Under the pieces are notes generated by a model that did not search any database, was not told the origin of the DNA, and saw only the letters and a program-made list of their open reading frames with translations. DNA of 22,967 nt, taken from IMG/VR virus record IMGVR_UViG_2687453563_000005; one strand, 5' to 3'. Shown in pieces: positions 2,349 to 3,122 of the stretch (the first letter of the stretch is position 1; each line of letters begins with the position of its first letter). Both the position numbers and the translations under genes were made by a program. Source of the stretch: a virus (lineage: Duplodnaviria > Heunggongvirae > Uroviricota > Caudoviricetes).

Positions 2349-3122
2349 ATGGATATTACTGAGTTTCCTTCTGGAGTAATTGAACACCTTGGCTGGTATG
2401 TATACCGATTGATTGATCCGAGGGACGGAAGCACCTTCTATGTAGGGAAAGGCAAAGGTAACCGCGTATTTGCCCATATGCGCGGTGAAGTGGCAGCGAC
2501 TGATGATGACGAGTTACTGAGCAACAAGCTAAAGCAAATTAGAGAAATAAGGTTAGCAGGACTTGAAGTTATCCATGTCATCCATCGACACGGAATGACT
2601 GATGAAAAGACGGCGTACGAAGTTGAAGCAGCACTTATTGATGCCTACCCTGGGTTAACGAATATCATGAATGGTGCTGGCAGCAATGAATTCGGCGCCG
2701 CGCATGTCAAAGAGTTGATAGCAACATATCAGCCCGAAACCATAACATTTCATCATAAAGCATTAATGATATCCGTTAACAGAAGTGCAAAGGATTCAGA
2801 GCTTTATGATGCGGTTCGATTTAGCTGGCGCATTAATGTCTCTCGCGCCAGCCAAGCAGAAATCATTCTTGCTACTGTAAGGGGGATCGTTCGAGGGGTT
2901 TTCATTGCTGATAAATGGCTCAAATCAACACGTGAAAATTTCCCTTCGTTGAAATACTGGGACGAGGATCCTGACTTTGAGGCAACACAAAGTTCGCGCT
3001 ATGGTTTTGAAGGTCGAGAAGCCCCACCTGAAATAGCAAATCTTTATCTTGGAAAAAAAATACCAGATGAATTAAGAAAAAAAGGAGCTATGTCCCCGGT
3101 CCGTTACTCACCTAATTTTTGA
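2349..3122 (+). CDS. GIY-YIG nuclease-domain protein (257 aa) with uncharacterised C-terminal half
   Basis: N-terminal [29 protein letters not shown] matches the GIY...YIG motif pair; convergent with the tail-fibre gene; followed by a hairpin plus T-run. Confidence 0.7.

Follow-up and report, generated by a model that had tools for sequence, protein, structure and literature searches.

A very probably intact CMoRE (PD-T4-3) anti-phage nuclease gene carried as cargo at the end of a decayed Escherichia coli prophage

The open reading frame (ORF) at positions 2349-3122 of a 22,967-nucleotide stretch of tailed-phage DNA (IMG/VR record IMGVR_UViG_2687453563_000005; the whole stretch is called the window below) is, with high confidence, an intact copy of CMoRE, also named PD-T4-3, a known anti-phage nuclease whose gene is here a passenger at the end of an E. 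coli prophage that has decayed. The CMoRE/PD-T4-3 system is already known, and its structure and biochemistry have been characterised. By analogy with the characterised proteins we infer that the window allele is active and that it is expressed in its source strain. An earlier note, made from the DNA letters, had proposed that this gene encodes either a homing endonuclease or a nuclease of defence or anti-defence. The defence option was right, and the protein belongs to an experimentally validated family of anti-phage nucleases (PMC9519451, PMC12923530). The anti-defence option found no support, as modification-dependent restriction has been demonstrated for a near-identical protein. The gene and the parts of its product are as follows.

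2349..3122, plus strand: CMoRE/PD-T4-3 gene, 257 aa plus stop, assigned by the ORF call and by matches to PADLOC, phrog_5356 and PDB 9U75.
2349..2678, plus strand: N-terminal GIY-YIG domain (Pfam PF22945 and PF01541; end approximate).
2502..2513, plus strand: acidic autoinhibitory 'safety catch', D52-D53-D54-E55, in the inserted alpha2-alpha3 loop (placed by alignment and by the 4A mutant data of PMC12923530).
2721..3119, plus strand: C-terminal modified-cytosine sensing domain, residues ~125-257 (gap-free alignment to 9U75 and 9U7U; start approximate).

The ORF list of the window contains a 257-aa frame with an ATG start at 2349..3122 on the plus strand, and both the frame and its N-terminal GIY-YIG core stand as the earlier note had read them. 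The PADLOC profile for PD-T4-3 (PDLC04031) matched the ORF with 462.8 bits (E 7.6e-140), residues 1-256 lying on profile positions 1-255/256. In the PHROGs collection phrog_5356, whose function is unknown, matched over the full length. Using phmmer against the PDB, CMoRE from E. coli O157:H7 (9U75/9U8D) aligned without gaps over residues 1-257 (E 5.1e-171), as did CMoRE from APEC O1 (9U7U/9U7Z) (E 1.6e-150). By residue count 250/257 (97.3%) positions are identical to the O157:H7 protein and 219/257 (85.2%) to the APEC O1 protein. The window protein is the same as RefSeq WP_000355482.1, identified through a locus with 100% DNA identity and labelled 'LEM-3-like GIY-YIG domain-containing protein'. 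The NCBIfam search of the ORF gave no family match.

Pfam placed the LEM-3-like GIY-YIG family PF22945 on residues 28-110 with 54.2 bits against a cut-off of 27 (E 2.2e-14), while the generic GIY-YIG family PF01541 matched residues 16-100 weakly (13.8 bits). The tyrosines of the GIYxY-YIG motif, Y17, Y19 and Y31, are present, and the two motif segments W16-Y17-V18-Y19 and F30-Y31-V32-G33 are the same in 9U75 and 9U7U. Alignment to these two structures also showed that R39, R80, V92, L96 and Y127 are all conserved in the window protein. Over residues 1-50 and 56-168 the window protein does not differ from the crystallised O157:H7 enzyme, which is active. The catalytic site is therefore necessarily the same as in that enzyme, including E93 and N105, which by GIY-YIG motif spacing as in UvrC we take to be the Glu and Asn of the metal site. 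The earlier note would have been undone by a GIY-YIG core lacking its catalytic residues; Y17, Y19, Y31 and R39 are in place. [quoted passage not shown] The C-terminal half of the ORF had been called unassigned, which agrees with our searches, in which Pfam found no domain of any kind there and NCBIfam no family. [quoted passage not shown]

A functional selection against T4 yielded from E. coli ECOR68 the system PD-T4-3, a single CDS of 774 nt assigned to COG3680/GIY-YIG (Vassallo et al., Nat Microbiol 2022, PMC9519451 supplement), which Liu et al. (Nat Commun 2026, PMC12923530) renamed CMoRE. The ECOR68 gene and the window gene are alike in being single 774-nt coding sequences of the COG3680/GIY-YIG type on mobile elements, a comparison made by description and by the PADLOC profile. 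The CMoRE genes of O157:H7, APEC O1 and Klebsiella reduce plating of T2, T4 and T6 by ~10^5-fold, and cells carrying CMoRE survive at high MOI (PMC12923530); the defence is thus direct and non-abortive. Purified CMoRE cleaves DNA containing 5hmC or 5ghmC and spares C and 5mC DNA; T4(C) escapes it and T4(hmC) does not (PMC12923530). Cleavage follows the pattern CN11/N9G, leaves 2-nt 3' overhangs and requires two modified cytosines (PMC12923530). Cutting by the O157:H7 enzyme is guided by modification and nearly independent of sequence, and the entire T4 genome is degraded (PMC12923530). The enzyme is a tetramer in which each chain joins an N-terminal GIY-YIG domain to the C-terminal sensor fold. 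The double substitution V92S/L96S abolishes oligomerisation and defence, and replacement of the four consecutive acidic loop residues yields an enzyme that cuts ordinary DNA and is toxic (PMC12923530). Cleavage of 5hmC/5ghmC DNA and defence against T-even phages are thus known from proteins 97.3% and 85.2% identical to the window protein and from a K. pneumoniae homologue (PMC12923530). A Capnocytophaga homologue, 48% identical, cleaves DNA in a modification-dependent manner and, at high concentration, cuts Mu DNA as well, the mom-modified adenine of Mu being among its targets (PMC12366544).

Read against the 97%-identical protein, the window protein would assemble as a tetramer, a dimer of dimers. 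Its C-terminal domain would bind 5-hydroxymethyl or glucosyl-hydroxymethyl cytosines, and two such cytosines ~21 bp apart would be required (CN11/N9G). The GIY-YIG domain would then make a double-strand cut, dependent on Mg2+/Mn2+, that leaves 2-nt 3' overhangs. The acidic loop above the active site would repel ordinary and 5mC DNA, and the host chromosome would be spared for that reason. Incoming T-even DNA would be destroyed early and the cell would survive, a direct defence rather than abortive infection. From the outer end of the prophage remnant, a decayed lambdoid phage in the thrW island, the gene would protect the host, and hence the prophage too, from lytic phages that contain hmC.

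The closest characterised relative, O157:H7 CMoRE, has the same length and shares the motif, the catalytic Arg, the oligomerisation residues, the acidic loop and the sensor domain, features that place the window protein with CMoRE of the type I architecture. The window allele differs from 9U75 at 7 positions (window residue first): T51A, E55D, Q169K, I172V, N197H, S200T and L201M. The acidic loop consequently reads DDDE rather than the DDDD of O157:H7, a form that the window protein shares with the active APEC O1 CMoRE, whose architecture is also the same. Against APEC O1 CMoRE the window protein has 38 substitutions, most of which fall in the C-terminal domain. From its native promoter the APEC O1 gene gives only weak defence (PMC12923530), which implies that expression level matters. 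T51, Q169, S200 and L201 of the window allele occur in neither crystallised protein, and none lies at a position reported as essential. As T51 belongs to the acidic loop and Q169, S200 and L201 to the sensor domain, the allele might have a shifted substrate range, for instance towards arabinosyl-hmC or Mu mom-modified adenine, though we consider this unlikely. The same low confidence attaches to a separate idea, that a serU-type tRNA-Ser fragment constantly attached to the CMoRE gene and its flanks might mark a dedicated route between prophages.

GmrSD and the PvuRts1I/AbaSI family are other type IV modification-dependent enzymes directed against hmC/ghmC DNA. CMoRE resembles them in having no cognate methyltransferase, in separating the sensor from the nuclease domain and in cutting at a fixed distance beside modified cytosines. 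It differs in that its nuclease fold is GIY-YIG and in that a single polypeptide forms the tetramer.

The gene lies in a compact unit whose borders were read from aligned flanks in four contexts. Three of these are in the thrW island; the other is an unrelated prophage integrated at dusA, which is recorded as a circular molecule of 43.7 kb. The unit comprises the following elements in addition to the gene.

2134..2348, plus strand: upstream region, with the native promoter, that accompanies the gene (conserved in the thrW-island and dusA-prophage contexts).
2285-2313, plus strand: candidate sigma-70 promoter, TTGTGA (2285-2290), 17-nt spacer, TAATAT (2308-2313), hexamers read from the sequence.
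3142..3189, plus strand: intrinsic-terminator-like hairpin and U-run, the downstream end of the cassette (from folding; homology ends just after it).

Homology with the dusA prophage starts ~215 bp before the ATG and stops right after the hairpin. This shared extent gives a unit of ~1.05 kb, roughly 2134-3190, in agreement with the ECOR68 clone that was sufficient for defence, which carried 189 bp upstream and 33 bp downstream of the gene (PMC9519451 supplement). Only the ORF, the ~215 bp upstream and the terminator are common to the four contexts, and the neighbouring genes differ. By this comparison CMoRE is a single-gene system, with neither a partner gene nor a methyltransferase. Both candidate promoter hexamers are invariant in the four contexts; this conservation, together with the extent of the ECOR68 clone, makes TTGTGA-17 nt-TAATAT a plausible promoter. 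A consensus promoter scan of 1885-3400 listed none on the plus strand at threshold, the candidate being missed because its score of 8/12 falls below that threshold. The window leader carries a 3-bp insertion and the putative promoter spacer a base change, and no clear Shine-Dalgarno sequence could be read ahead of the ATG. Downstream, a 39-nt hairpin (3142-3180) overlaps and runs into UUUUUCUUUUUU (3178-3189). The 81-nt terminator stretch folds at -27.3 kcal/mol (z = -3.98), and 0/200 shuffles fold as well, which supports the earlier suggestion that the gene has its own terminator. A consensus terminator scan of 1885-3400 found none and the hairpin was recovered by folding only, because its stem is bulged.

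The surroundings of the cassette bear on how it came to its present place.

1..753, minus strand: AraC-family gene.
1172..1939, minus strand: IS1A (InsA and InsB ORFs; RefSeq; target duplication AGATTTTC).
2090..2169, minus strand: 5'-truncated serU-type tRNA-Ser fragment, an att remnant (97.5% over 80 nt to chromosomal tRNA-Ser).
~3192-3326, minus strand: truncated tail-fibre-assembly (tfa) pseudogene between the cassette and the tail-tip gene (RefSeq, identical locus L001 21293-21427).
3375..7082, minus strand: J/TipJ-like tail tip/fibre gene, 1235 aa (ORF; RefSeq 'gpJ: TipJ family phage tail tip protein' at the identical locus).

CMoRE and the J/TipJ-like gene are convergent, as had been said of the tail fibre gene, with the tfa pseudogene in between. 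IS1A lies 409 bp upstream of the ATG, outside the conserved 215-bp region, and interrupts the spacer between the AraC-family gene and the cassette; the site is empty in O157:H7 TW14359 and O6:H16. In O157:H7 TW14359 the CMoRE gene occupies the same chromosomal place, beside the same AraC-family gene and serU-type fragment. The window is set apart from it by the IS1 upstream, and by a tfa fragment and J-like gene downstream where O157:H7 has the pin invertase and invertible fibre genes. In O6:H16, too, CMoRE is found beside the pin invertase and fibre genes, and it is near Avs2 there. In the dusA prophage it lies between tail-fibre genes and the integrase and adjoins a type II restriction-modification pair. 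The view of this slot as one that carries morons is borne out by a cassette complete in itself, promoter region and terminator included, which is adjacent to fibre genes in the dusA, O157:H7 and O6:H16 contexts.

The 80-nt tRNA-Ser fragment, ~180 bp upstream of the ATG, matches annotated tRNA-Ser genes in thousands of E. coli genomes, and the matching gene of a K-12 derivative lies at about 2.04 Mb, the position of serU. ARAGORN did not call the fragment because it is 5'-truncated. An Rfam scan of 1885-3400 gave three sub-threshold hits, namely a partial IS009 over the 3' end of tfa/J, a plastid 3'UTR model and tRNA-Sec, of which the last covers the tRNA-Ser fragment as a weak, tRNA-clan hit. 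The partial IS009 match (a candidate small RNA; 3235-3400, minus strand; model positions 67-199; 77.1 bits against a gathering threshold of 117) overlies the tfa pseudogene and the 3' end of the J-like gene, and is probably due to conserved coding sequence of the prophage and not to an RNA gene. The truncated side of the tRNA-Ser fragment points towards CMoRE, while its 3' end and ~10 nt of native flank face away, and in the window copy GAACCCCC is mutated to GCCCCCCC. From this layout we infer that a phage formerly resided in that tRNA gene and that the fragment marks its far-end att junction; the cassette would then be the last gene before the former att site. The earlier note had put the gene between the tail fibres and the att site, and the serU-type remnant agrees with this, with the twist that the present att of the prophage remnant is thrW and lies elsewhere. 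The remnant now sits in the thrW island, with the tRNA-Thr gene (21524-21599) and the integrase (20346-21509) at the right end of the window and a matching 64-bp thrW repeat ~500 bp beyond its left edge; on the left side no thrW-island att was found inside the window. These data suggest that the tail and cargo end came from a phage with its att in tRNA-Ser, and the remnant would be a mosaic of two prophages.

Pairwise dN/dS (Nei-Gojobori) among four alleles, from the window, O157:H7 TW14359, O6:H16 and strain CT01, was 0.05-0.14, from which we conclude that the protein is maintained under purifying selection. The window and O157:H7 alleles differ by 23 synonymous and 7 non-synonymous changes. 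The gene was found in 837/5426 complete E. coli genomes (about 15%) at >=95% DNA identity, nearly always in single copy. The 1.5 kb round the gene, window positions 1900-3400, is identical in at least 15 complete genomes. A tblastn search of 50,697 phage records found no close copy, all matches being <60% identical. Known copies of the gene come from prophages of bacterial genomes and not from phage isolates that have been sequenced. The same tblastn search returned full-length homologues with both domains, 37-45% identical, in lytic jumbo phages of Serratia, Pectobacterium, Pantoea, Klebsiella and Pseudomonas. Examples are Serratia phage Moabite (NC_048792.1, 6406-7161) and Pseudomonas phage OBP (NC_016571.1, 158703-159449). 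In these records the genes bear the depositors' labels of endonuclease, homing nuclease or hypothetical protein. A possible role for them is attack on co-infecting phages whose cytosines are modified.

It is improbable that the CMoRE copy, though intact, is silent or weakened, either because it is not expressed protectively in a decaying prophage or because the allele is inactive. In the remnant, indeed, the lysis and head genes and most of the tail genes are gone and deletion joints are present, and the nearby IS1, the want of a strong promoter in the consensus scan and the weak defence reported for APEC O1 CMoRE from its native promoter all speak for silence. However, the ORF is intact with every key residue kept, the low dN/dS indicates continued selection on the protein, and the 189 bp that sufficed in the ECOR68 clone are retained here, downstream of IS1. 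The identity of the 1900-3400 segment across at least 15 genomes also argues against silence, as does the activity of PD-T4-3 against Tevenvirinae in NILS69, its native host, only one other system having been found active in a native host (10.1101/2024.12.20.629700). A less than protective expression level of the window copy is the only live caveat.

The homing endonuclease that the earlier note had allowed for, a GIY-YIG enzyme spreading by cutting a cognate gene that lacks it, is very unlikely. It could draw on a weak match to phrog_314 'homing endonuclease' (E 0.0022), on the occurrence of the cassette in several unrelated prophages and on jumbo-phage homologues labelled 'putative homing nuclease', but those labels are depositors' putative annotations. 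With a tRNA fragment on one side and a tfa pseudogene on the other, the gene is neither in nor beside a split or target gene; no intron or intein is present. Pfam identified no NUMOD/IENR1, zinc finger, helix-turn-helix or other C-terminal module, and the 97%-identical protein chooses its cuts by base modification and degrades the whole T4 genome (PMC12923530). Both the placement and the modules of an I-TevI-like homing endonuclease are absent, and membership of that group was rejected. There is scarcely any chance that the gene is a piece of a UvrC/Cho-family nuclease with a housekeeping role in repair, which would likewise have overturned the earlier proposal. No UvrC, Cho or other NCBIfam model matches, Pfam shows none of the further UvrC-type domains (UVR motif, RNase H-like endonuclease domain, HhH) at the C-terminus, and the window protein has an extra acidic loop and the sensor domain. 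The gene occurs in only about 15% of E. coli genomes and lies in prophages there, which is the distribution of an accessory gene; the UvrC/Cho reading is excluded by this together with the domain content. An intact CMoRE remains the reading that we adopt.

Several other features of the window were recorded. A KAP-family P-loop NTPase of 443 aa (8686-10017, plus strand; PF07693, E 9.4e-71) lies in a stretch of ~30% GC just downstream of the antiterminator Q gene, where lysis and head genes are expected. It matches the candidate defence family PDC-S20 of PADLOC over its full length (E 4.5e-177), and PifA and QatA more weakly. The Q-KAP NTPase arrangement occurs in about 15 complete E. coli genomes, and the NTPase may be a second, uncharacterised defence moron in the same remnant. 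A chimeric ORF of 308 aa (7143-8069, minus strand) is methyltransferase-like over its first ~157 residues and derives its last ~26 from lambda tail assembly protein I (PF06805). The methyltransferase part corresponds to the N-terminus of a type II N6/N4 DNA methyltransferase (MTase_II PDLC03265, E 7.7e-74, residues 1-157; PF01555, residues 29-133). The chimera has the look of a joint left by a deletion in which the late genes between the Q region and the tail tip were lost. A PAPS-reductase-family gene (18783-19778, plus strand), beside yfdR/yfdQ-like genes, has a weak partial match to PADLOC SspD (E 4.1e-14), and no Ssp or Dnd partner genes were seen nearby. Of the RefSeq complete E. coli genomes, none aligns at a single locus with >73% of the window. 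Strains such as 2-101 and WCHEC020031 share the left part (AraC, IS1, CMoRE, J) and the right part (cI to proA) at 100% identity, and the matches of the middle part (Q, KAP NTPase, replication region) are to other strains. This mosaic is therefore unrepresented among the RefSeq complete E. coli genomes.

As a discovery the finding carries little weight, PD-T4-3 having come from a functional selection in 2022 and its structure and mechanism having been published in 2026. Its use lies in annotation and prediction. The RefSeq label of the protein can be upgraded to CMoRE/PD-T4-3, a type IV restriction enzyme against hmC/ghmC phages. The name predicts that the source strain would be resistant to T-even phages at a step after adsorption, which bears on phage therapy. 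The locus is also a clean case of a defence moron that is under selection while the prophage around it decays.
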